This document shows positions 43,632 to 52,181 of a DNA stretch of 64,000 nucleotides, piece after piece. Source of the stretch: Victivallaceae bacterium (lineage in GTDB: Bacteria > Verrucomicrobiota > Lentisphaeria > Victivallales > Victivallaceae); the NCBI GenBank assembly GCA_045654745.1, contig JAZONW010000015.1:2250-66249 (forward strand), in the 5' to 3' direction. The position numbers and the translations under genes are program-made. The first letter of the stretch is position 1. Each line of letters begins with the position of its first letter. The notes under the pieces were generated by a model, which was not told the DNA's origin, did no database searches, and worked only from the letters and a program-made list of their open reading frames with translations.

Positions 43632-44474
43632 TTATTTTTGACAAATCACAATGAAATCATTGATGAGTTTATCCAACTTTTTTCGGTCTTTGACCGCGGC
43701 AAGCCAGCGTTCAGGGATGGCGGAATATCCGTAATAAGCACCGGTAATTTGTCCGCAGACAGCGCCGATACTGTCGGCATCTCCCCCCAGATTGACCGCC
43801 GCTGTCAGAGCATTTTCAAAATTATCTGTGGTATGAAAAGCCCACAATGCTGCCTGAAGTGTGGAAACTACCCACCCGGAATTGTTTACTTTTTCCCGGA
43901 TGGTATATTCAGATACAACCCCGGTTTTACTGCCGGATAAGTGCTCCCGGCAAATGTCAGCCATTAAATCCAGTGTTTCCCGGACTTTACAACTGGCGTG
44001 AGTGAGATCGCTCACTTCGTGGATTATGCGGTTGCCCGGAGTGTCGCCATTAAGCAGCAAAGTCGGAGCAAAACGCATAATGGAGCCGTTGCCCTGCGAA
44101 TTTTCAAAACCGTTGACAAGATGCCCTTGTTTCAGTTCGGTGATCCCTTTTGCCGTCGCCGCGCCGACATCAAAAGCATAGTCCAGACTGGAACAGAATC
44201 CATCGTCATACCAGCGGATGAAATTACCGGCAATATCTTTGAGGTCGTATCCCTGACGTCGGACGGCACTTGCCATAATGCACAGAGCCATTGCGCCGTC
44301 ATCGGTCCAGTATCCCGCCGGCGTATTGAAGTGTTGACACGGTATCATTTCTGCGACATGAGGGAAAGAATCCATCTCCATAAATTGTACCGGCGAACCG
44401 AGACAATCTCCCACGATCAATCCCCACAGCATTCCCCGGATACGGTCATATTTTTCGGCAGTTATTGTATTCAT
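43632..44474 (-). CDS. ADP-ribosylglycohydrolase family protein (DraG/ARH-like)
   Basis: IRGMLWGLIVGDCLGSPVQF N-terminal motif, YWTDDGAM, and a C-terminal GGDADSIGAVCGQITGAYYG metal-site motif. 280 aa. Confidence 0.85.
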   Translation of the reverse strand: MNTITAEKYDRIRGMLWGLIVGDCLGSPVQFMEMDSFPHVAEMIPCQHFNTPAGYWTDDGAMALCIMASAVRRQGYDLKDIAGNFIRWYDDGFCSSLDYAFDVGAATAKGITELKQGHLVNGFENSQGNGSIMRFAPTLLLNGDTPGNRIIHEVSDLTHASCKVRETLDLMADICREHLSGSKTGVVSEYTIREKVNNSGWVVSTLQAALWAFHTTDNFENALTAAVNLGGDADSIGAVCGQITGAYYGYSAIPERWLAAVKDRKKLDKLINDFIVICQK

Positions 44475-44475
44475 T

Positions 44476-44877
44476 TTACAGATCTTTCATATAAATTTTT
44501 ACGGTTATCGTCACCCAGTTGCTGAATTCGGCAAATTCTACATTCACGACTTTGCCATAAAGTATTTTGCCTCCGTCTAGCAGGCGGGCAAGGATTTCAT
44601 TTTTTCTGCGCGGGACATATCCAAGTTTTTTTCCGGCTGCATTGTCGATACGGATCGCAAGATCATCATATTTATTATTTGCCTCCCGCACCAGGTAAAC
44701 AACAGTGCCTGTGGGCAGAGATTGAGCTTCTTTTTCAATGTCTTTGACAAAACCGGTTCCGGCGATTTCGCATTCCAAAAGAAAAAGTTCCTGCACAAAA
44801 GGCATTACAAGACCACCGCCTTTGTTAAGTTTGGCGATATCATTCCATTTGTCAAGTTTTATAAGATCATCTGCCAT
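44476..44877 (-). CDS. HIRAN-domain protein
   Basis: CEIAGTGF...GTVVYLVREANNKYDDLAIRIDNAAGKKLGYVPRRKNEILARLLDGG matches the HIRAN pattern (rep.N.yD.nAi.v....iGyvp...a..la.lld). The ATG at 44877 lies 2 nt after the upstream stop. Confidence 0.75.
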   Translation of the reverse strand: MADDLIKLDKWNDIAKLNKGGGLVMPFVQELFLLECEIAGTGFVKDIEKEAQSLPTGTVVYLVREANNKYDDLAIRIDNAAGKKLGYVPRRKNEILARLLDGGKILYGKVVNVEFAEFSNWVTITVKIYMKDL

Positions 44878-44879
44878 AG

Positions 44880-45695
44880 TTAATATTCTGCTCTTATCTC
44901 TTTGAGAAAGGTTATCTGGTTTTTGCAAATACGGATCTCGTTATCCAGTTCCCGCCGTTTTTTTCTTACCGCATCAGGGTCGGACAGGATGGTTTCATAG
45001 GAAAAAGGAATCCTCTGCCGCGTATCGGAAATCTGTTGGGTCAAATCAAAAGTTTTTTTCAGGATTTTTTCCAATTCCTCCCGCAGCAAAGTCAAAGAGT
45101 CTATTTTTTCAACATAATCGATTTTGCCGGAGAGTTTCTCCTCTGCTATATCAGCTAAAAGGAAAAGTTCGTCCCAGTCATTCGCTTTGTAAGCCGCCTG
45201 GATTTGCTCCCAAAGCATATCAGCACCGGCGGGGAGGTCGGGATTCAAATCCGGATGCAGTTTGCGAACGATGTCGTGATAGACTTTTTTGAAAGTTTTT
45301 ACTTCTTCATCAGTCCATTTCCTTGCTGCGAAATGCTCCCTCGCTGTTTGTAATTGGGTCTGCATGGTTTCCAGTTGTGTTTTATAGTCGGCGAATTCTT
45401 TTTCTATGATTTGCTTCACTTCATCATTGGTAATTTTTGTCTCCCGGTTGCGGGCAGCTTGAAAGAGCGATATTTCCCGTTTCAACCGCAGTATTTCCAC
45501 CTGACAGGAAAAAAGTTCATGTTCTTTTTTGCCTAGTTTTAGCATATATTCTGTTTCCAGATTTTTGCCGACCACGCCGATAAGCTGGGAATATTCTTCT
45601 ACCAAAGTGGTATAGTTTTCCCGGGCAAGTTGCAGATCTTTTTTTGTCTTTTCAAATTCGGGGCTGAGGGTCAAAAAATCTTTTGGGATTATCAT
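44880..45695 (-). CDS. J-domain (DnaJ-like) coiled-coil protein
   Basis: The central segment VKTFKKVYHDIVRKLHPDLNPD...WEQIQAAYKANDWDEL carries the HPD tripeptide. Flanking regions are heptad-rich. 271 aa. Confidence 0.7.
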   Translation of the reverse strand: MIIPKDFLTLSPEFEKTKKDLQLARENYTTLVEEYSQLIGVVGKNLETEYMLKLGKKEHELFSCQVEILRLKREISLFQAARNRETKITNDEVKQIIEKEFADYKTQLETMQTQLQTAREHFAARKWTDEEVKTFKKVYHDIVRKLHPDLNPDLPAGADMLWEQIQAAYKANDWDELFLLADIAEEKLSGKIDYVEKIDSLTLLREELEKILKKTFDLTQQISDTRQRIPFSYETILSDPDAVRKKRRELDNEIRICKNQITFLKEIRAEY

Positions 45696-45701
45696 TGAGT
45701 A

Positions 45702-45875
45702 TTACCTTTTTATTTCAGCTAAAAGTTCGTCACTTAAATAAAGTTGATCATTTTTGTCAGCGTTGAGCATATACAGAACATTGTGAAATAGTATCGCCCA
45801 TCGAAAACAGGTTTTTTGTGTATAATGTTTTCCGGGAAACGGGTCGTGTTGCAGCATAAATTCATAGCATCCCAT
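45702..45875 (-). CDS. Doubtful small ORF (57 aa from the first ATG)
   Basis: The track ORF starts at a TTG (45947). An alternative overlapping frame also exists. No recognisable motif. Confidence 0.15.
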   Translation of the reverse strand: MGCYEFMLQHDPFPGKHYTQKTCFRWAILFHNVLYMLNADKNDQLYLSDELLAEIKR

Positions 45876-45943
45876 CCGGGAATAACACAGTTTTTTCCAT
45901 AAAAACCTCCATGAAGATGTTTCTTTAATGTAATATAGTGCAG

Positions 45944-45969
45944 GCAAGTGGACATCTTGCGTCCACTTG
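45944..45969. promoter_or_regulatory. Inverted repeat CAAGTGGAC-N7-GTCCACTTG containing the 14-nt motif shared with the WYL promoter region
   Basis: 9-bp perfect arms (45945-45953 and 45961-45969). It lies between the Lon-like stop (46044) and the J-domain operon. No T-run follows, so it is not a canonical terminator. Confidence 0.5.
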
Positions 45970-46043
45970 AATTGTGGCGTAAAATATTTTTGATTTTTTT
46001 TTGAGAGAAACAGGTAGATATTCGGTTGTTTCGGGATGCCGGA

Positions 46044-47861
46044 TTACTTGAAACTGATCAACAACGCTTTGGCGTACAAAGCAGAATACCAGTAATCTTC
46101 CAAAATTTCTTCAAGGTTGTCTTGAGAGTTTTCTATGGACTCTGCAATTTGAAATGCCCGGATCGGTTCAAGAGAGGGGATGGAGGAAACAAAACACTCC
46201 TGCAGATTTTTCAATGCGCTTTCCCGGGCATTTCTGATCAAATACTGGGCAAAATCTGTGCTGATATCTCTGTATTTGCGAACCAGCAAAACCGTACTTT
46301 TGACAAATGCTGACACTTGCAGTTTCAGAGAAACCTGTGTGTGATAGTCCGTCGGATTTGAAGCAATATCATTGTGGTATTTCAAAGCAAAATCACTGAT
46401 TGTCGCTGCCAGATATTCATTTATTTCAATATCTTCCCGGTATTCATCATTGGGGAATTCTGAAAACGCGGCATTTTTTGTTGCCACCTGGGCTGTCTTG
46501 AAAAGGTTTTCCACTTTTGAAGCGGCAGAGTTAGGCTGCTTGTGCGGCAAGGTTCCGGCGATTTCATCGTGAAGTTTGACTTTATCCTTTTGCGAAAAAG
46601 CCGCCAGTTCACCGCTTTGCAGCAGGAATAATTCCAGCAACTTTTCATTTTCAAATTGTTCTTTGGATAAATGCAGATTTTTGATTGATTCGTAATGACT
46701 GTTGAGTGCATGTACAGCTGCCAGTAAATCTGAAACATTTTCCGGGTCTTCCAACTGGGCTGAAATTGGTGAAGGATGCCGGTCGGGGGAGGTGGAAAGA
46801 GTTTCTTGCAATTTATTTTCGTGCTCGTCGAGCAGTCTGTAAACGGCATTGGTGGCAAATTCAAAATTCCGTTTGTGTATTTTTGCCAAAACTTTTTTGG
46901 CATTGCCGAAAAGCGGTACTTGCCACTTTTTGTGTGCCTGTAAGGTTTTCAGAGCGGTTGTAAACATGGCATAGTGTTCTATGATCCGGAAAATAGCGGC
47001 AGGGAATTTGCCTTCTCTGAATAATTTTTCAAAACCGAAATTGATGTTAAACATTGTACAGACAGAGTTGACAGATTCTTCCGGGATTTTTTTCAGGATG
47101 TCAGTGAGCATCGCGAGATATCTGTTATACTCTTTTTTGAATAATTCTTCGGCATCCCGGGAAATTGCGGTTACGGATTTTTCGTTGATGTATTTTTTTT
47201 CCGGGAAAGATTTGTTGTAGATAAAAGCGAATGCTTCTTCGATATTTCCGACGGGAAAAATGGCGATATCAAGTTTTTCTGCCAGATTGATGATATCGAT
47301 AAGTTTTCCGCTGGCATCTTCGATCATTCTGCGGTATCCGGGGACGAATATGCGTTTTTTGCCGGCTTTTGCGGCAGCGATGATTTTTTCGACGATGCCG
47401 CCGACATCACCGATGGTGCCGTCCGGGAAAATGGTTCCGGTCATGGCAAAATCATCGGGCAGTGAAAGTCCGTCGATCGCGGATAAAATGGCGAGACAAC
47501 TTACCGCACCGGCACTTGGGCCATTGATATCGCCCTGAAATTCGACTGAAATTTTCACTCCGTGCAAGGCGTTGTTGCGGAGCATGGCTGCGGTTATAGC
47601 GGCGAGCCACAGATTATCCCGGATCTCTTTGCCGCTGCCGTTTGGAGTGTCATCGGTAACGGCGATACGCAAGGGTTTGTTTTCATTTGTTTTCTGAAAT
47701 TCAAAAGGCAGATAAGTCAATTTGCCGTTGTTTCCGCGGATTGCCAAACAAGGTATATTGTACGAAACAGTATATGTATTGTTGTTTGCACCAACTTGGA
47801 TAGAGGCCGTATCTGCGGTCATATTTTTGCTTTTTTTACCTCGTGCAGGATTGAAGTGCAA
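46044..47861 (-). CDS. Stand-alone Lon (S16) protease domain fused to a roughly 380-aa helical domain of unknown function
   Basis: DINGPSAGAVSCLAILSAI (catalytic Ser) and AMTGTIFPDGTIGDVGGIVEKIIAAAKAGKKRIFVP (catalytic Lys). No AAA+ module and no signal peptide. The track start 47861 is TTG; the first ATG is 47822. Confidence 0.7.
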   Translation of the reverse strand: MHFNPARGKKSKNMTADTASIQVGANNNTYTVSYNIPCLAIRGNNGKLTYLPFEFQKTNENKPLRIAVTDDTPNGSGKEIRDNLWLAAITAAMLRNNALHGVKISVEFQGDINGPSAGAVSCLAILSAIDGLSLPDDFAMTGTIFPDGTIGDVGGIVEKIIAAAKAGKKRIFVPGYRRMIEDASGKLIDIINLAEKLDIAIFPVGNIEEAFAFIYNKSFPEKKYINEKSVTAISRDAEELFKKEYNRYLAMLTDILKKIPEESVNSVCTMFNINFGFEKLFREGKFPAAIFRIIEHYAMFTTALKTLQAHKKWQVPLFGNAKKVLAKIHKRNFEFATNAVYRLLDEHENKLQETLSTSPDRHPSPISAQLEDPENVSDLLAAVHALNSHYESIKNLHLSKEQFENEKLLELFLLQSGELAAFSQKDKVKLHDEIAGTLPHKQPNSAASKVENLFKTAQVATKNAAFSEFPNDEYREDIEINEYLAATISDFALKYHNDIASNPTDYHTQVSLKLQVSAFVKSTVLLVRKYRDISTDFAQYLIRNARESALKNLQECFVSSIPSLEPIRAFQIAESIENSQDNLEEILEDYWYSALYAKALLISFK

Positions 47862-47948: not shown

Positions 47949-48197
47949 TTGCAGAAGATGCGACAGCCTGGACATGCTACTGTTGATATGACTGTCCGCT
48001 ACACGCACGTGGCTCTGGATGCCAAAATCAAAGCTGTTCAAGCTCTTCCTGTATTAGGTGATAATCGCATTCAGAACGATACCTTTGCGGAGGTTATTTG
48101 CAATCTTCCGGCAGAAAAACTTCCACGTCTGGCAACACTTCTGGATGCTTATCTGCCATTAAGTCAAAAAGAAGAACTGTTATTGAAATTGAGATAA
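47949..48197 (+). pseudogene. Tyrosine recombinase (phage integrase) 3' remnant
   Basis: Only the extreme C-terminal catalytic box is present (GHATVDMTVRYTHV, catalytic Tyr), then an unrelated tail. No upstream integrase sequence is present. The track 'start' is TTG. Confidence 0.6.
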
Positions 48198-48214
48198 CTC
48201 AAACTGAAAAATAT

Positions 48215-48243
48215 GGAACTGTCAAGAACAGCTTGACAGTTCC
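48215..48243. terminator. Bidirectional hairpin terminator
   Basis: 12-bp perfect stem GGAACTGTCAAG/CTTGACAGTTCC with a 5-nt loop and T-runs on both strands. It lies between the convergent integrase remnant and the 125-aa gene. Confidence 0.65.
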
Positions 48244-48287
48244 GCAGTGTTTTATAAATTTGTATGATTTAATACGCAACAGCTATT

Positions 48288-48665
48288 TTAAAAATTCCAA
48301 CCGTTTTGTCTGCTCGTTTCCAACGCCTGTTTTGCCATACTTTTTATTGCTTCTTCGGCACAGTATTTCATTATGGCAACAAAGTAAATACTCTGAACGA
48401 TGTTGTTTAATTCATTGCATAATTGCCAGTCAGAAATGTTACCGGACCGTAAAGCATTCATAAAAAATTGATTTGGCAGATAATATTTATCCAGCAGCTT
48501 CAACAATGTATTGATTGCTTTCTGCCGCTCAAAAACCTGCAATACCCCGATAGCTTCCTGCCGGTCATTTTCTATTTCCATTGCCTTACAACAGCCTTCA
48601 AGAAATTTTTGCAATGTTTCCGTTTGCTGCTTTTGTATTTCCCATTGTTCTTCTGAATAATACAT
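48288..48665 (-). CDS. Hypothetical 125-aa helical protein, last gene of the AT-rich cassette
   Basis: Good RBS (AAAGGAAAGGA) before the ATG at 48665, 36 nt downstream of the ATPase stop. No motif recognised. Confidence 0.5.
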   Translation of the reverse strand: MYYSEEQWEIQKQQTETLQKFLEGCCKAMEIENDRQEAIGVLQVFERQKAINTLLKLLDKYYLPNQFFMNALRSGNISDWQLCNELNNIVQSIYFVAIMKYCAEEAIKSMAKQALETSRQNGWNF

Positions 48666-48701
48666 TGTGTCCTTTCCTTTGTATAACTATTCTAACTTCA
48701 G

Positions 48702-50423
48702 TTAAAGCAAAAGTTGATTATCAGCAATAGATGGATATTTTTTGTTTATTTTATCTCTAATTTCTTTTTCTTGTGCCTGTACTAAAGGATTTTTAACTTC
48801 AATAAGAGCTTCTAAAAGACTAATACAAAAATCTCTGCAAATTTGAGAATTCCGTTTACACCATGCTTCAAATAAAGTAGCAGATGAAGGACCGAAATGT
48901 CCATCTCGCTGTTGCTCATCAAACCATTTTTTATAGCGTTTTTTCTTTTCTTGTTCGCTTGTTAACAGAGGATCTGCTTCAATATTGTTGTTATTTGCTA
49001 TGCAAAAGCTTTGTTGAACTCCCATAATGTCCCAAATTTGATCATCATCATTCAAATTAACCAAAAAAAGATTCATTTCTTTTTCAATGAAGTATTGCCC
49101 CGGTAGAGATAAAAGTGTTTTTGATTTTTTGGAAATTAACGATTTTGAATCTGGGTCTAATATATAAATAACTTTTTGAAAATCGGGTATTTTTTTACTG
49201 ACCAGATGGCGAACAATATTCAGTAAAACACCATTTGATAAACATGTTTCAGAATTACGATTTTCTGTATTAAATGTCTTCAAGCAACCATCAAAAATAC
49301 GTCCAACTATTCGCTTGAAAAAATTGCACCCTACAACATCTTCAAACACAATTGATGTTTTCTCTATTTCTCGAATTTTTGCTTTCTTTTGAATGTGTGC
49401 TAAATCAGATGCAACAAAATCATAATCTACATCATTATTTATTTCAACATTTTTACCTTTTTTCTGGAAATAAACACATTTTACGTTTGATTTATGTTTT
49501 TGCAAAGCATCTTCTAATACAGGCAATGAATGCGTTGTTGTAATGATCTGAATATTTAGACTAGTGGAATATTCTACTAATTTTTGAAGTAACAACTTTT
49601 GGGCGACGGGGTGTAATGTTGCATCAAATTCATCTATCAACAATACACCTCCTTGATAATGCTCTTTTAGTTCCTTTTTTAATCTATGGAAAGAAATAAT
49701 TGCACTTATAATCTGTCCCAAATTATCTTGACCAGCAGAGGCACTTTCTGCATCAAAATAAGTAGTTTCAACTGAATGATATGATTGTTTAAAACTTTTT
49801 CCAGTATTCAGGTGTTCCGGCAAAAGTTTTTCATTACCATTGCAAATCATAACAACTCGATAAATATCATTCCAAATACGCTTCTCATCTTCTGGTAAAA
49901 CGTCTTTTCCGATAATATCTTTTTTGGATAGTGTAGATAACGGTCTTAAACGTTCTAAACCTAAATATATTACAGGATGTGGGAAGTTGCCTACTCCGGG
50001 AGACCTGTTGGTACTATTGGTAACCATACGAATACTTTGTTCTCCTCTTTTCTCTGATCTTACGGGTAATTCACTACAACCATCATTTATTACCTCACCT
50101 TTTAACCGCAAGACATAATCAAGGTTTCTCGGCTTATCAAATTTTTGAGAAATACGAAATACTTCAGAAAATTTAGCTTGAAAATTTCGTTCACCAACAG
50201 TTTTATATCTAGAAAGGTCAAAACTGTCGTACACTCTTGTATAAATAGATAACTTCTCTCTTTTTTTAGGGAACCCCAATGGTTGTGCAATCATGCCGAG
50301 TAAAGTTGACTTAGCAGTACCATTCAGCCCAGCTAATAAAGTTACCCGATCTCCTAATTCAATATTTGTTCCTGGGATAAAGCAACGAAAACTGTTAACA
50401 TAAATACTTTGAACTGATATCAT
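48702..50423 (-). CDS. ABC/SMC-type ATPase with C-terminal Toprim-like (OLD-family/DUF4435-like) domain
   Basis: Walker A GLNGTAKST, signature-like SAGQ, Walker B VLLIDEFDATLHP, H-loop TTTHS. The C-terminal part has IVFEDVVG and YILDPD motifs that resemble Toprim Glu and DxD. 573 aa. Confidence 0.55.
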   Translation of the reverse strand: MISVQSIYVNSFRCFIPGTNIELGDRVTLLAGLNGTAKSTLLGMIAQPLGFPKKREKLSIYTRVYDSFDLSRYKTVGERNFQAKFSEVFRISQKFDKPRNLDYVLRLKGEVINDGCSELPVRSEKRGEQSIRMVTNSTNRSPGVGNFPHPVIYLGLERLRPLSTLSKKDIIGKDVLPEDEKRIWNDIYRVVMICNGNEKLLPEHLNTGKSFKQSYHSVETTYFDAESASAGQDNLGQIISAIISFHRLKKELKEHYQGGVLLIDEFDATLHPVAQKLLLQKLVEYSTSLNIQIITTTHSLPVLEDALQKHKSNVKCVYFQKKGKNVEINNDVDYDFVASDLAHIQKKAKIREIEKTSIVFEDVVGCNFFKRIVGRIFDGCLKTFNTENRNSETCLSNGVLLNIVRHLVSKKIPDFQKVIYILDPDSKSLISKKSKTLLSLPGQYFIEKEMNLFLVNLNDDDQIWDIMGVQQSFCIANNNNIEADPLLTSEQEKKKRYKKWFDEQQRDGHFGPSSATLFEAWCKRNSQICRDFCISLLEALIEVKNPLVQAQEKEIRDKINKKYPSIADNQLLL

Positions 50424-51304
50424 TTTTCATCTCCCATCGTATGTTTTTTATGGATTAACAATTCCGAAGCAATTCTTACCTTCTGCATAGTGTATTGAAT
50501 AGGAAATTCTTCAATTATGATTCCTGAAAAATTTTTGTATATATCTTTTATTTCAGAACAATTATCGTAAGTCATTAACCAGGGGCAAAAATCGAAATTA
50601 TTGATATGGTCTGCCAATGCGATGTGATCTTCTGTCGTATAAAAGTTTAAATACAATTTACTGCCATTGTGAAAATACGGAGGATCTAAATATAAAAAAG
50701 TATCTTGAGGAGTTGAGGTTAAAAAAGGCAATGTTTTTAGAAAATCAATTGCATCCATAGATACAAATTTGATATGTTCATGGTTAGACGCAATTGTTTT
50801 AATTTTTTCTATTAAAGAACCTTTTTTAAAGCGTGCATCCAAAGTGTAGTTGCCGTTTTGCAAATATCCACCAATCGGGCCAGCCTTGGGCAAAATGCCA
50901 GAACGGTTACATCTATTTAGAAAAAAAGTTGAAAAGCCAACTAACAATAAATCTTTTTTATTTTTTAAGTTAAATTGCTGAATATTATCATAAATATTCC
51001 TTTGTATTTTCCATTCTTTGATGGATATTGGTGTGTTTTCGATGCATTCAATGAAATCATCTGGCATAGAAAGTATACTTTGCCAGAAAGAAGCGATGTG
51101 AGGGTCAAAATCATTGATAACAATATTTTCTATATGTTTATTAAGAAGCAAGGCAAGTGCGACACCCGCACCTCCTGCGAAAGGTTCACAATATGTTCCG
51201 TGTGATGATATGCCATATTTTTTTAACATTTCGACAAAGAAATTGGCAATGGAAGCTTTGCCACCGGGATACCGAAGTGGACTAAAACTATTTCTGCTTC
51301 CCAT
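50420..51304 (-). CDS. N6-adenine DNA methyltransferase, Dam/D12 class
   Basis: LRYPGGK, EPFAGGAG (motif I) and LYLDPPYF (motif IV). ATGA overlap with the ATPase gene. The ATG at 51304 follows AGAAGG; the track start is TTG. Confidence 0.85.
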   Translation of the reverse strand: MGSRNSFSPLRYPGGKASIANFFVEMLKKYGISSHGTYCEPFAGGAGVALALLLNKHIENIVINDFDPHIASFWQSILSMPDDFIECIENTPISIKEWKIQRNIYDNIQQFNLKNKKDLLLVGFSTFFLNRCNRSGILPKAGPIGGYLQNGNYTLDARFKKGSLIEKIKTIASNHEHIKFVSMDAIDFLKTLPFLTSTPQDTFLYLDPPYFHNGSKLYLNFYTTEDHIALADHINNFDFCPWLMTYDNCSEIKDIYKNFSGIIIEEFPIQYTMQKVRIASELLIHKKHTMGDEK

Positions 51305-51358
51305 AATAATCAATACCTTCTTAATCTTTAATAATTATAGTTTAAGTTTGCCGTTTAA

Positions 51359-51469
51359 TCATGAAACCGGATTCATTGAAATCAGCAAATAACGACCGCG
51401 TTGCGTTTTACCAGAAGCGTCAACGCTTCCCAGTTCTTGAGAACCACATTTTTTCAAAAAGTATTTCAT
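51359..51469 (-). CDS. 36-aa ORF (MKYFLKKCGSQELGSVDASGKTQRGRYLLISMNPVS), possibly an N-terminal remnant of a lost gene
   Basis: Starts 2 nt after the XRE stop. It is below the track cutoff, and its function and reality are uncertain. Confidence 0.2.
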   Translation of the reverse strand: MKYFLKKCGSQELGSVDASGKTQRGRYLLISMNPVS

Positions 51470-51471
51470 AA

Positions 51472-51678
51472 TCAATCCACCTGTTCAATTTCCATAATAT
51501 CAGCAATACCACATTCAAGGGCGGCACATATTTTCAGCAAAACATCAGTCGTAACATTCTCTCCTTTTCCAAGTTTAGCGAGAGTTACTGAACTTATCCC
51601 GGCCAGCTTTCTCAAATCGCCCTTTGTCATTTTTTTATCAATGAGCAATTTCCACAGTTTCCTGTAATCTGTTTTCAT
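51472..51678 (-). CDS. XRE-family HTH regulator (controller-protein-like)
   Basis: MTKGDLRKLAGISSVTLAKLGKGENVTTDVLLKICAALECGIADIMEI is a Cro/C1-type HTH. The ATG at 51678 is preceded by GAGGA. Confidence 0.8.
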   Translation of the reverse strand: MKTDYRKLWKLLIDKKMTKGDLRKLAGISSVTLAKLGKGENVTTDVLLKICAALECGIADIMEIEQVD

Positions 51679-51759
51679 ATTTATGTCCTCAAGGTGCATA
51701 TCAACGTATTACATATCCGAAAGTAATATATCACAGAAAAGAAGAATTTACAAACCCAA

Positions 51760-51819
51760 GATTTGCAAAAACAAATTTTTTTTATACCAGCAAGAAGAAA
51801 AACAATCGATTTGCAAAAA
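51760..51819. repeat. Two direct copies of GATTTGCAAAAA (51760-51771 and 51808-51819)
   Basis: Read directly from the sequence, 48 nt apart, upstream of the XRE gene. Confidence 0.6.
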
Positions 51820-51833
51820 ATTTGAGTTATATA

Positions 51834-51845
51834 TCACTATAGTGA
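51834..51845. promoter_or_regulatory. Perfect 12-bp palindrome TCACTATAGTGA
   Basis: Read directly from the sequence, about 155 nt upstream of the XRE start. A possible operator. Confidence 0.35.
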
Positions 51846-51937
51846 GATAAGCTCACGATCAAATATCAGCCTTGCCGGTTCTTCGGGATCGGCAGGGATT
51901 TTTGTCCATTAACAATCCTTACTTGAAGTTTGGGTTA

Positions 51938-51972
51938 TTGCTTACAATTTTGCTTACATCCTATGTAAGCAA
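51938..51972. repeat. Three copies of the 9-mer TTGCTTACA (two direct, one inverted)
   Basis: 51938-51946, 51950-51958 and the inverted copy 51964-51972 (TGTAAGCAA). They sit at the tRNA-proximal edge of the AT-rich cassette. Confidence 0.6.
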
Positions 51973-52065
51973 ATCGTAAGTAGAGAGTCAAATCATCAAC
52001 CTTAACCAATAGATACCAAAGTTGTCAAGAGCGATGAGATGTAAGCGTAAATCGTTGATTTTGAG

Positions 52066-52097
52066 CAAAAAAAAGGACTTGTCGTTAAACAAGTCCT
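52066..52097 (-). terminator. Rho-independent terminator of tRNA-Met
   Basis: 9-bp stem AGGACTTGT/ACAAGTCCT (52074-52082 and 52089-52097), followed on the minus strand by a T-run of at least 7 nt (A-run 52067-52073 on plus). Confidence 0.7.
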
Positions 52098-52106
52098 GTA
52101 AAGTGC

Positions 52107-52181
52107 TGGTAGCGGGGGCTGGAATCGAACCAACGGCCTTCAGGTTATGAGCCTGACGAGCTACCACTGCTCCACCCCGCA
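52107..52181 (-). tRNA. tRNA-Met (anticodon CAT), initiator-like
   Basis: Hand-folded 75-nt cloverleaf. It is close to E. coli tRNA-fMet (GCGGGGTGGAGCAG...CTCATAA...). There is a position 1:72 mismatch (T.T), encoded CCA, and only two G-C pairs at the base of the anticodon stem. Confidence 0.85.

Follow-up and report, generated by a model that had tools for sequence, protein, structure and literature searches.

The window analysed here, a 64,000-nucleotide stretch of a Victivallaceae bacterium contig (GenBank assembly GCA_045654745.1, JAZONW010000015.1, positions 2,250–66,249), carries two overlapping genes that encode a DNA methylase and an ABC ATPase with a Toprim-like C-terminal tail. We consider this pair most likely to be an uncatalogued relative of PD-lambda-5 and of the OLD-type anti-phage systems; since its methylase falls into the PD-lambda-5 family, the module is related to a known system and is not wholly undescribed. 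A role in defence is highly probable in view of carriage on islands and prophages, the defence-island neighbours, a methylase common to a validated system, and the OLD-type architecture of the ATPase protein. As to the mechanism, we slightly favour a restriction-like logic, in which the methylase marks self and the ATPase–nuclease attacks unmarked DNA, over a guard-type abortive rival, and we give it a tentative probability of about 0.4.

All positions below are window positions, and every gene of the cassette that contains the pair lies on the minus strand. The pair comprises the following features:

50420–51313, minus strand: D12-class methyltransferase, 297 amino acids (aa), with translation more likely to begin from the ATG at 51304
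48702–50423, minus strand: ABC ATPase, full protein, 573 aa
49404–50423, minus strand: ATPase domain, residues 1 to about 340
48705–49376, minus strand: C-terminal domain of the ATPase protein, residues 350–573

The stop codon of the methylase gene and the start codon of the ATPase gene share the sequence ATGA (...GAAAAATGATATCA..., read from the sequence), a layout that suggests translational coupling. The surrounding DNA is AT-rich: over 48–52 kb the GC content is 0.31–0.36, lower in each of these four 1-kb bins than anywhere else in the window, where the next-lowest bin is at 0.375 and most others are at 0.40–0.54. An initial annotation, made from the letters and open reading frames (ORFs) alone, had reported co-directional genes in the most AT-rich part of the window, with a methylase and an ATPase overlapping by ATGA. 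The ORFs, the GC bins and the sequence agree with this description, and all motifs quoted in it (YPGGK, FAGGAG and DPPY in the methylase; GLNGTAKST, SAGQ, LLIDEFD, THS, IVFEDVVG and ILDPD in the ATPase) are found in the translations.

The methylase belongs to the PD-lambda-5_B family

Pfam places the methylase in MethyltransfD12 (PF02086, 1.4e-23). Among the PADLOC models, PD-Lambda-5_B (PDLC04018) matches it with 1.3e-100 and 334.5 bits over profile positions 4–273 of 291, and the REBASE-derived Type II methylase model MTase_II matches with 3.1e-81. The motifs YPGGK, FAGGAG, and DPPY are intact. As judged from its sequence, the protein is thus a catalytically intact D12-class N6-adenine DNA methyltransferase of the PD-lambda-5_B family. 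Its designation as "Dam-class" in the initial annotation is true at the level of the D12 fold only, because it scores 61.9 bits against the TIGR00571 Dam model, whose cutoff is 114.85. We have therefore rejected its identity as a Dam (GATC) orthologue.

None of the cassette proteins matches the PADLOC model PD-Lambda-5_A, which describes the ParB/HEPN partner of this methylase and on which genuine A proteins reach 492 bits (locus L141). A scan of 80 metagenomic loci from the methylase side revealed several kinds of partner. A PD-Lambda-5_A-like protein alone is present in 34 loci, the ATPase family alone in 14, both in 6 and neither in 26; where both occur, the gene order is A, methylase, ATPase. 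Some of the loci counted as having neither partner encode divergent A proteins (L141, 492 bits), and others carry a trio of Schlafen/AlbA_2, HerA, and NurA genes. Since the partners (A, the ATPase, both, or Schlafen–HerA–NurA) appear to be swappable, this methylase family is, by its gene neighbourhoods, a hub for interchangeable nuclease-type effectors, as restriction-modification (R-M) logic predicts.

Five of the metagenomic loci merit description in their own right (L093, L095, L116, L127, and L136; for example, L095 3029–8290). In these, a PD-lambda-5_B-type methylase lies beside a Schlafen/AlbA_2 protein (PADLOC candidate PDC-S50), a HerA-like ATPase, and a NurA-like nuclease, which together look like another methylase-coupled effector set. 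In two further loci (L103 2210–4849 and L129 4878–7472), the methylase adjoins a gene for a protein of about 870 aa that has no Pfam or PADLOC match. This gene is co-directional with the methylase in L103 and on the opposite strand in L129, and its product could be a further methylase partner.

The ATPase domain is complete and OLD-like

The N-terminal part of the 573-aa protein matches AAA_15 and AAA_21 in Pfam and features Walker A (K38), the Q/signature motif SAGQ, Walker B (D264 and E265), and the H-loop (H298). All 69 homologues compared retain Q232, D264, E265, and H298, and 68 of them also have K38.

No dedicated model of the family exists in PADLOC 2.0, Pfam, or NCBIfam. The protein shows weak PADLOC matches to GajA, NsnB, PtuA, AriA/AriAB, and the ATPase–Toprim protein of retron I-B. 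The NsnB profile is covered as a whole (residues 5–352 against 3–326 of 345, 1.6e-15); the AriA models match the Walker B region only (2e-11), and the alignments to the AriAB and ATPase-Toprim_I-B models run from Walker B as far as residue 441–450 or so. The N-terminal 217 residues on their own give no PADLOC match. The best NCBIfam model is PtuA, far under its cutoff, and in PHROGs the whole protein corresponds to phrog_3940 (3e-93), a family of "unknown function". PADLOC thus identifies the methylase as a PD-Lambda-5_B match but captures the ATPase only by weak matches, without a dedicated model. For one distant family member (L041), the top PADLOC match is HEC-04 (2.2e-19, 67 bits), confined to the ATPase part (28–281 of 494); HEC-04 is not among the 25 best PADLOC matches of the window protein.

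An AlphaFold2 model of the full protein, built with an alignment of 43 homologues, has a pLDDT (predicted confidence score) of 89. When the whole model was compared with the Protein Data Bank (PDB) using Foldseek, the best matches were the retron Eco8 effector (8.5e-12), Thermus scotoductus (Ts) OLD (2.7e-11), and GajA, with PtuA and SMC heads next in rank; the PDB entries matched include 9lpa_B, 6p74, and 8x5i. These whole-model matches to the retron Eco8 effector, Ts OLD, and GajA bear out the initial description of a complete ABC-type, OLD-like ATPase.

The C-terminal domain carries an invariant acidic cluster

The isolated C-terminal domain was modelled with a pLDDT of 92.5. Its predicted layout is beta(356–360)/alpha/beta(381–383)/alpha/beta(418–422)/alpha/beta(437–439)/alpha, followed by a helical bundle. 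In the model, E361 and D362 directly follow the first beta-strand, D423-x-D425 directly follows the third, E447 opens the next helix, and K498 and W500 lie within the helical bundle. The domain thus features an acidic cluster of E361, D362, D423, D425, and E447, together with K498. The initial annotation had drawn attention to the glutamate and the DxD motif, and both turn out to be family-wide features: each of the 69 homologues, at 25–46% identity to the window protein, retains E361, D362, D423, and D425, whether it is methylase-linked or solitary. With the strand positions taken from the model, a conserved glutamate after beta-1 and a DxD after beta-3 correspond to the catalytic Toprim signature, as known from OLD nucleases and RNase M5 (PMC12065111).

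A profile search with the domain across 1.84 billion representatives yielded about 740 clusters at 50% identity. Among the best 150 of the 740 cluster representatives, the domain sits at the C-terminal end, mostly in proteins of about 500–600 aa (shorter entries may be fragments), and none provides a bridge to other architectures. The domain is probably a family-specific, Toprim-like metal-dependent nuclease domain, its fold class and activity being deduced from these features. We retain the wording "Toprim-like" because no comparison confirmed homology to Toprim.

The pair is conserved across phyla and on temperate phages

A word-based protein search with the ATPase retrieved at least 1299 homologues of the full-length type, about 500–630 aa long, the named ones being annotated as "AAA family ATPase" or similar. 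The closest among the matches listed (98% identity) comes from a Lentisphaeria metagenome-assembled genome (MAG). For a locus scan, one genome per species was used, giving 80 loci from Kiritimatiellia, Selenomonas, Desulfovibrio, Syntrophales, Collinsella, Fusobacterium, Clostridia, and Alphaproteobacteria, as well as Dehalococcoidia, Lactobacillus, bacteria of the candidate phyla radiation (CPR), and a few archaeal MAGs.

A methylase of the same family adjoins the ATPase in 48 of these 80 loci, including all 12 of the closest (L001–L012), so that the adjacency noted initially in a single genome is conserved across phyla. In the 41 pairs for which both genes were fully recovered, they always share a strand, in either gene order, and the DPPY motif is kept in 42 of 42 paired methylases. 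Pairwise identities of the methylases and the ATPases correlate (Spearman 0.30, Mantel p = 0.001). Across the ATPase loci there is no third gene that is generally conserved. By this comparison of loci, only the methylase–ATPase pair is the conserved unit of the cassette.

Paired loci often adjoin Type III or EcoRII R-M systems. In 6 genomic loci (including L001) and 6 metagenomic ones, the ATPase family occurs together with both PD-lambda-5 genes. Two temperate phages, the P2-like Vibrio phage ValB1MD-2 and the Citrobacter phage phiNP, encode the ATPase and the same methylase family, and ValB1MD-2 has a ParB-like gene in addition. Taken at the level of gene content, the pair is co-inherited across phyla and also in temperate phages. 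Of the 80 genome loci, 32 lack a D12 methylase; in 6 of these the ATPase lies beside a C5 methylase, and in one, the distant relative L033, beside a UvrD-like helicase.

In the phiNP record (OR565852.1), the methylase was found by tblastn near the record end (L083 5305–6102), just downstream of the annotated "AAA family ATPase". It is 41% identical to that of the window, and the annotation table of the record has no coding sequence in this region.

Comparison with known systems

PD-lambda-5, which PADLOC and DefenseFinder list, is a validated prophage system that consists of a ParB/HEPN protein and a methylase and is broadly protective (Vassallo et al, 2022; PMC9519451). Its cloning required a host deleted for the mrr region (PMC9519451), which indicates that the methylase is active in Escherichia coli. 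The window module shares its methylase family, PD-Lambda-5_B, with this system, and both are mobile two-gene modules, on a prophage or an island, that combine the same kind of methylase with an effector. In contrast to PD-lambda-5, however, the window cassette lacks the PD-Lambda-5_A gene, and its effector, an ABC ATPase that ends in a Toprim-like domain, is described by no PD-lambda-5 model. With the A gene absent, the window module is not PD-lambda-5 itself.

The OLD family, represented by P2 Old and Ts OLD (Class 1), GajA (Class 2), and the retron Eco8 effector (Class 3), provides the best whole-model PDB matches, and the 573 aa of the window protein are close to the 586 aa of P2 Old. The window protein differs in having no match to PF20469, which the listed P2 Old homologues carry (with one truncated exception), in a first acidic motif that reads FED instead of ExxxE, and in the linkage of its family to a methylase as opposed to a UvrD helicase or a retron. 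None of the class-defining neighbours, namely a UvrD-like helicase (Class 2), a retron reverse transcriptase and non-coding RNA (Class 3), or a separate AriB (Class 4), is present; the window ATPase gene is flanked by the methylase gene and a gene for a 125-aa protein. Lacking both a PF20469 match and a class-defining neighbour, it is not a recognisable member of OLD Classes 1–4.

That ABC ATPases of the OLD type with Toprim effectors are attached to R-M-like systems is a known theme (Krishnan et al, 2020, as cited in a passage of PMC12839542; Payne et al, 2024). The experimentally validated HEC-04, an ABC ATPase fused to TOPRIM and embedded in Hma systems (Payne et al, 2024), resembles the window protein in combining an ABC ATPase and a C-terminal Toprim or Toprim-like domain in one polypeptide of about 500 aa within methylase-containing defence loci. 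The match is, however, weak (the 67 bits of L041) and restricted to the ATPase, and the genomic partner in the window is a D12 methylase instead of Hma.

PARIS and AbiL/RloAB likewise contain an OLD-type ABC ATPase with a divergent Toprim, often near R-M loci. PARIS, which is triggered by Ocr and targets tRNA, consists of separate AriA and AriB (DUF4435) proteins, whereas the window protein is a single fused polypeptide that has no DUF4435 match and no independent signal in the Toprim region. Menshen comprises NsnA (ParB-DUF262), NsnB (ABC ATPase), and NsnC (effector) and is often linked to solitary methylases (PMC12065111). The ATPase domain of the window protein spans the whole NsnB profile, and the three-gene variants of ParB-like protein, methylase, and ATPase–nuclease echo the sensor–ATPase–effector order of Menshen. 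On the other hand, the window cassette contains no DUF262/NsnA or NsnC gene, the window protein has a canonical Walker B DE and Q motif where those of NsnB are degenerate, and the effector is fused in the former and separate in the latter. As the partner genes of each system are absent, the module is neither PARIS nor Menshen.

Type III R-M systems (Mod and Res) share with the window two overlapping, co-directional genes for a methylase and an ATP-dependent putative nuclease, and the window methylase could supply the sequence recognition. Res, however, combines an SF2 helicase with a PD-(D/E)xK nuclease, in contrast to the ABC ATPase and Toprim-like domain found here. Mod is a beta-class methylase, whereas that of the window is D12/alpha-class, and its complex with the ATPase is putative. 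The resemblance to Type II R-M systems with a controller (C-) protein lies in the intact methylase motifs (FAGGAG, DPPY) and the MTase_II match. An XRE helix-turn-helix (HTH) gene with two TTTGCAAA-containing repeats upstream is a candidate controller; it is absent from the 80 ATPase loci and has a single relative among the 80 methylase loci. No REase_II model is found among the listed PADLOC matches of the cassette proteins. The initial annotation had not recognised the module as a standard described type; this holds insofar as the ATPase has no catalogued model and the partner genes of known systems are absent, but the methylase family is already catalogued under PD-lambda-5.

A proposed restriction-like mechanism and its alternatives

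In the mechanism that we slightly prefer, the methylase would mark host DNA at its own recognition sites. The ATPase–nuclease, either alone or bound to the methylase in the manner of Type III systems, would engage DNA through ATP binding or hydrolysis, and its Toprim-like metal site would cut incoming DNA without the mark. The module would then be a variant of PD-lambda-5 that has an OLD-like ATPase–nuclease as its effector in place of the ParB/HEPN protein. This restriction-like logic draws on the overlap of the two genes and their joint inheritance, on a methylase that is always intact, and on the pairing of this methylase with several nuclease-type effectors. A further-reaching proposal, which we regard as unlikely, is that the pair represents an unrecognised class of ATP-dependent R-M. 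Here, the D12 methylase would be a Mod-like specificity and modification subunit, and an SMC/OLD-type ABC ATPase with a divergent Toprim would take the place of Res; the same methylase family would also plug into ParB/HEPN or HerA–NurA effectors.

Several observations weigh against a restriction-like mechanism. The long insert of the ATPase shows motifs that are invariant across the family and no obvious variable target-recognition region. The characterised ABC-ATPase/Toprim systems (PARIS, P2 Old, and Gabija) are trigger-activated abortive systems and not methylation-sensitive restriction enzymes. In 4 of the 32 genome loci without a D12 methylase (L041, L046, L052, and L053), the ATPase is sandwiched between a bona fide Type II restriction endonuclease (REase) and a C5 methylase; the REase of L041 is recognised with 1.5e-117. 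In two more of these loci (L030 and L042), the ATPase gene lies inside hsdM/hsdS. R-M is thus already complete in these six loci. About 20 of the 80 ATPase relatives have no recognisable methylase within 6 kb, and the ATPase family is therefore not intrinsically dependent on a protecting methylase. Furthermore, the initial assignment of the C-terminal domain to Toprim found no confirmation in any of the comparisons. The C-terminal residues (311/350–573) alone have no Pfam or PADLOC match even at E = 10, and when 28 C-termini of the family were compared with Pfam, 0 of 28 matched Toprim or DUF4435, including PF20469. A profile search of PDB sequences with the domain returned noise only. With hhalign, the domain did not match an alignment of 25 P2 Old sequences (probability 0.1), and at full length the Walker B/H-loop segment alone aligned. 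Foldseek searches of PDB and BFVD with the isolated C-terminal model gave nothing under E = 0.1 (best E 0.2); AriB of PARIS ranked third with a non-significant probability of 0.28.

The initial proposal of a self-protecting methylase coupled to an OLD-type nuclease is thus upheld in part. The co-directional pair is conserved, but no comparison matched the C-terminal domain to Toprim, roughly one in four ATPase relatives lacks a methylase within 6 kb, and others reside in complete R-M systems. The solitary and the R-M-embedded relatives weaken the strict reading in which the methylase shields the cell from its own nuclease.

The same relatives suit a guard-type abortive system, an "RM + Abi" (abortive infection) arrangement that we rate as possible, though on balance unlikely. 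The ATPase protein would then be a second line of defence similar to PARIS or PrrC, held inactive while the methylase or R-M system works. Its trigger would be a phage cue, for instance an anti-restriction factor (Stp, an inhibitor of the methylase, or a DNA mimic such as Ocr), upon which the Toprim-like domain would cut host tRNA or DNA and the infection would be aborted. Some relatives lie inside complete R-M systems, and the solitary ones resemble Class 1 OLD proteins in this respect. The ATPase also occurs alongside PD-lambda-5 A and B in the 6 metagenomic and 6 genomic loci described above and in the P2-like phage, and its nearest PADLOC and fold relatives (AriA/AriAB, PtuA, GajA, NsnB, HEC-04, and the retron Eco8 effector) are trigger-activated. 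In agreement, PD-lambda-5 itself has been termed a compacted RM + Abi system (Vassallo et al, 2022; PMC9519451), and Payne et al (2024) as well as a 2026 BREX survey present OLD-ABC/Toprim modules as embedded backup effectors. However, neither the window nor most paired loci contain a restriction enzyme to protect, and no trigger can be inferred from the sequence. The catalytic motif of the methylase is always intact, and the tight overlap and conserved co-orientation fit a stoichiometric enzyme pair at least equally well.

The restriction-like and the guard-type mechanisms both assume that the ATPase protein cuts nucleic acids. If it were instead a sensor or transducer, its acidic C-terminal domain would serve in metal or nucleotide binding or in oligomerisation, and killing or restriction would be carried out elsewhere, for example by PD-lambda-5_A, if present, or by an unlinked host nuclease. 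A parallel exists in Menshen, where NsnB is thought to control NsnC; the match to the full NsnB profile (1.6e-15), the similarity of ParB-like/methylase/ATPase operons to the sensor–ATPase–effector layout, and the lack of a significant structural or sequence match between the C-terminal domain and any nuclease all point in this direction. We nevertheless judge this possibility improbable: most loci, including that of the window, have no third conserved gene, and the invariant E-D...DxD...E...K set after beta-1 and beta-3 is the classic catalytic signature of Toprim (PMC12065111).

It is highly improbable that an orphan methylase and a standalone OLD-like defence gene merely became neighbours in a common hotspot, for although defence genes cluster, related genomes carry other cargo in the same hotspot, and each gene is also found without the other, this is countered by the 4-nt ATGA overlap, the same-strand adjacency in 48 of 80 loci from many phyla and in both orders, the correlated divergence of the two proteins, and their joint presence in phages.

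The pair rides on a decayed tRNA-Met island

The remaining features of the cassette and its surroundings are as follows:

51472–51699, minus strand: XRE regulator, 75 aa
51359–51469, minus strand: small ORF, 36 aa, between the XRE and methylase genes
48288–48665, minus strand: 125-aa ORF, function unassigned by any family search
48214–48244: bidirectional terminator-like hairpin that separates the 125-aa gene from the integrase remnant
47949–48197, plus strand: integrase remnant, C-terminal 82 aa of a tyrosine integrase
52107–52181, minus strand: tRNA-Met (CAT), predicted by ARAGORN; island boundary and integration site
51753–51725, minus strand: promoter-like site TTGTAA-17-TATATT, a consensus match
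51760–51771 and 51808–51819: two exact GATTTGCAAAAA repeats with the palindrome TTTGCAAA, consensus matches

From this arrangement and from related loci, the methylase–ATPase core is seen to ride on a decayed 4.2-kb tRNA-Met integrative island, with the 125-aa gene and the integrase as its backbone and XRE, methylase, and ATPase as variable cargo. This interpretation is based on the nucleotide ties of the window to locus L165 and on the occurrence of the 125-aa gene beside differing cargo. Window positions 47982–48680 are 82% identical to L165 6984–7684, a segment that contains the 125-aa gene along with the 3' end of the Phage_integrase gene of that locus (432 aa). In addition, blastn aligns the 3' 45 nt of the window tRNA-Met (52107–52151) with 89% identity to L165 8833–8877, beside the L165 integrase. 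The remnant ORF itself has no Pfam match, and its identity as an integrase is derived from the nucleotide homology to L165. A second tRNA attachment (att) repeat was looked for in the window and not found; the island has lost most of its integrase and the distal att site.

The 125-aa protein has only 46 homologues, each at least 63% identical, of which the sole organism-named one comes from a Lentisphaeria MAG. It has no family match in Pfam, PADLOC, NCBIfam, or PHROGs searches and is absent from all 80 ATPase loci. In L165, its gene is flanked on one side by the intact integrase and on the other by cargo of another kind, XRE-led and Type I-like, which comprises XRE, a Type I-like methylase/S subunit, a 501-aa protein, and an FRG-domain protein; in L166, it comes after Dcm, EcoRII, Vsr, the ATPase, and a D12 methylase. 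The initial annotation had closed the cassette with this gene as a member. We have rejected it as a component of the system and assign it to the island backbone instead, since it stands beside different cargo elsewhere.

More generally, tRNA-Met appears as a hotspot in Lentisphaeria whose cargo differs by genome (window 47949–52181; L165 6635–8877; L166 781–7381), the constant flank being the 125-aa gene plus the integrase where it survives. In L081, an ATPase 68% identical to that of the window follows the methylase, behind Dcm–EcoRII–Vsr and without XRE.

The XRE protein, placed at the head of the cassette as a controller-like regulator in the initial annotation, is indeed an XRE/Cro-C1-type HTH protein (HTH_26 in Pfam, 9e-20) but is not conserved with the methylase–ATPase pair. 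It has no tblastn match in the 80 ATPase loci, and a relative with 57% identity occurs once among the 80 methylase loci (L100). With this single case on the methylase side, XRE was rejected as a conserved component; it probably merely tunes expression in the lineage of the window, as a possible controller of the operon. The GATTTGCAAAAA copies are 48 bp apart and lie upstream of the promoter-like site that precedes the XRE gene. They are candidate operators and, together with TTGTAA-17-TATATT, would form a candidate promoter and operator of the XRE-led transcript.

L100 (18–2127) is the only other find of a window-type XRE with the methylase module: the 57%-identical XRE gene is followed by a frameshifted-looking AlbA_2-like gene and then by the same methylase family.

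The 36-aa ORF, whose translation reads MKYFLKKCGSQELGSVDASGKTQRGRYLLISMNPVS, overlaps the XRE stop codon and has no Pfam match. Its residues (YFLKKCGSQELGS...GKTQRGRYLLIS) are similar to WL[VI]KRLSGNDTGITGGHQSGIYVP, the EcoRII-N/B3-like motif of EcoRII genes found in the same hotspot elsewhere. This ORF could be what remains of the N-terminus of a B3/EcoRII-N-like DNA-binding domain, left behind by a restriction gene since lost; alternatively, it may not code for a protein.

Just past the integrase remnant lies a further co-directional cluster (43632–47861, minus strand). It encodes a protein of 605 aa that contains a Lon_C protease domain, one of 271 aa that matches the J-domain (HPD) weakly, a HIRAN protein of 150 aa (PADLOC candidate PDC-M03B, 1.5e-10), and an ADP-ribosylglycohydrolase (Tri1/DraG-like), and could constitute a second defence or toxin-related module.

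Significance of the methylase–ATPase pair

The ATPase family is represented in many bacterial phyla, with a few matches in archaeal MAGs, and in temperate phages. Because the models of PADLOC, Pfam, and NCBIfam miss the ATPase, censuses of defence systems undercount the family. If the pair works as a unit, it would add a widespread effector to the methylase family of PD-lambda-5, a system that is validated and mechanistically unexplained. The interchangeable partners of this methylase (ParB/HEPN, ABC-ATPase/Toprim-like, and Schlafen–HerA–NurA) would amount to a natural experiment in coupling methylation marks to differing effectors, and the pair makes it possible to test whether OLD-type ATPase–nucleases can act as true modification-sensitive restriction enzymes or as abortive sensors only.

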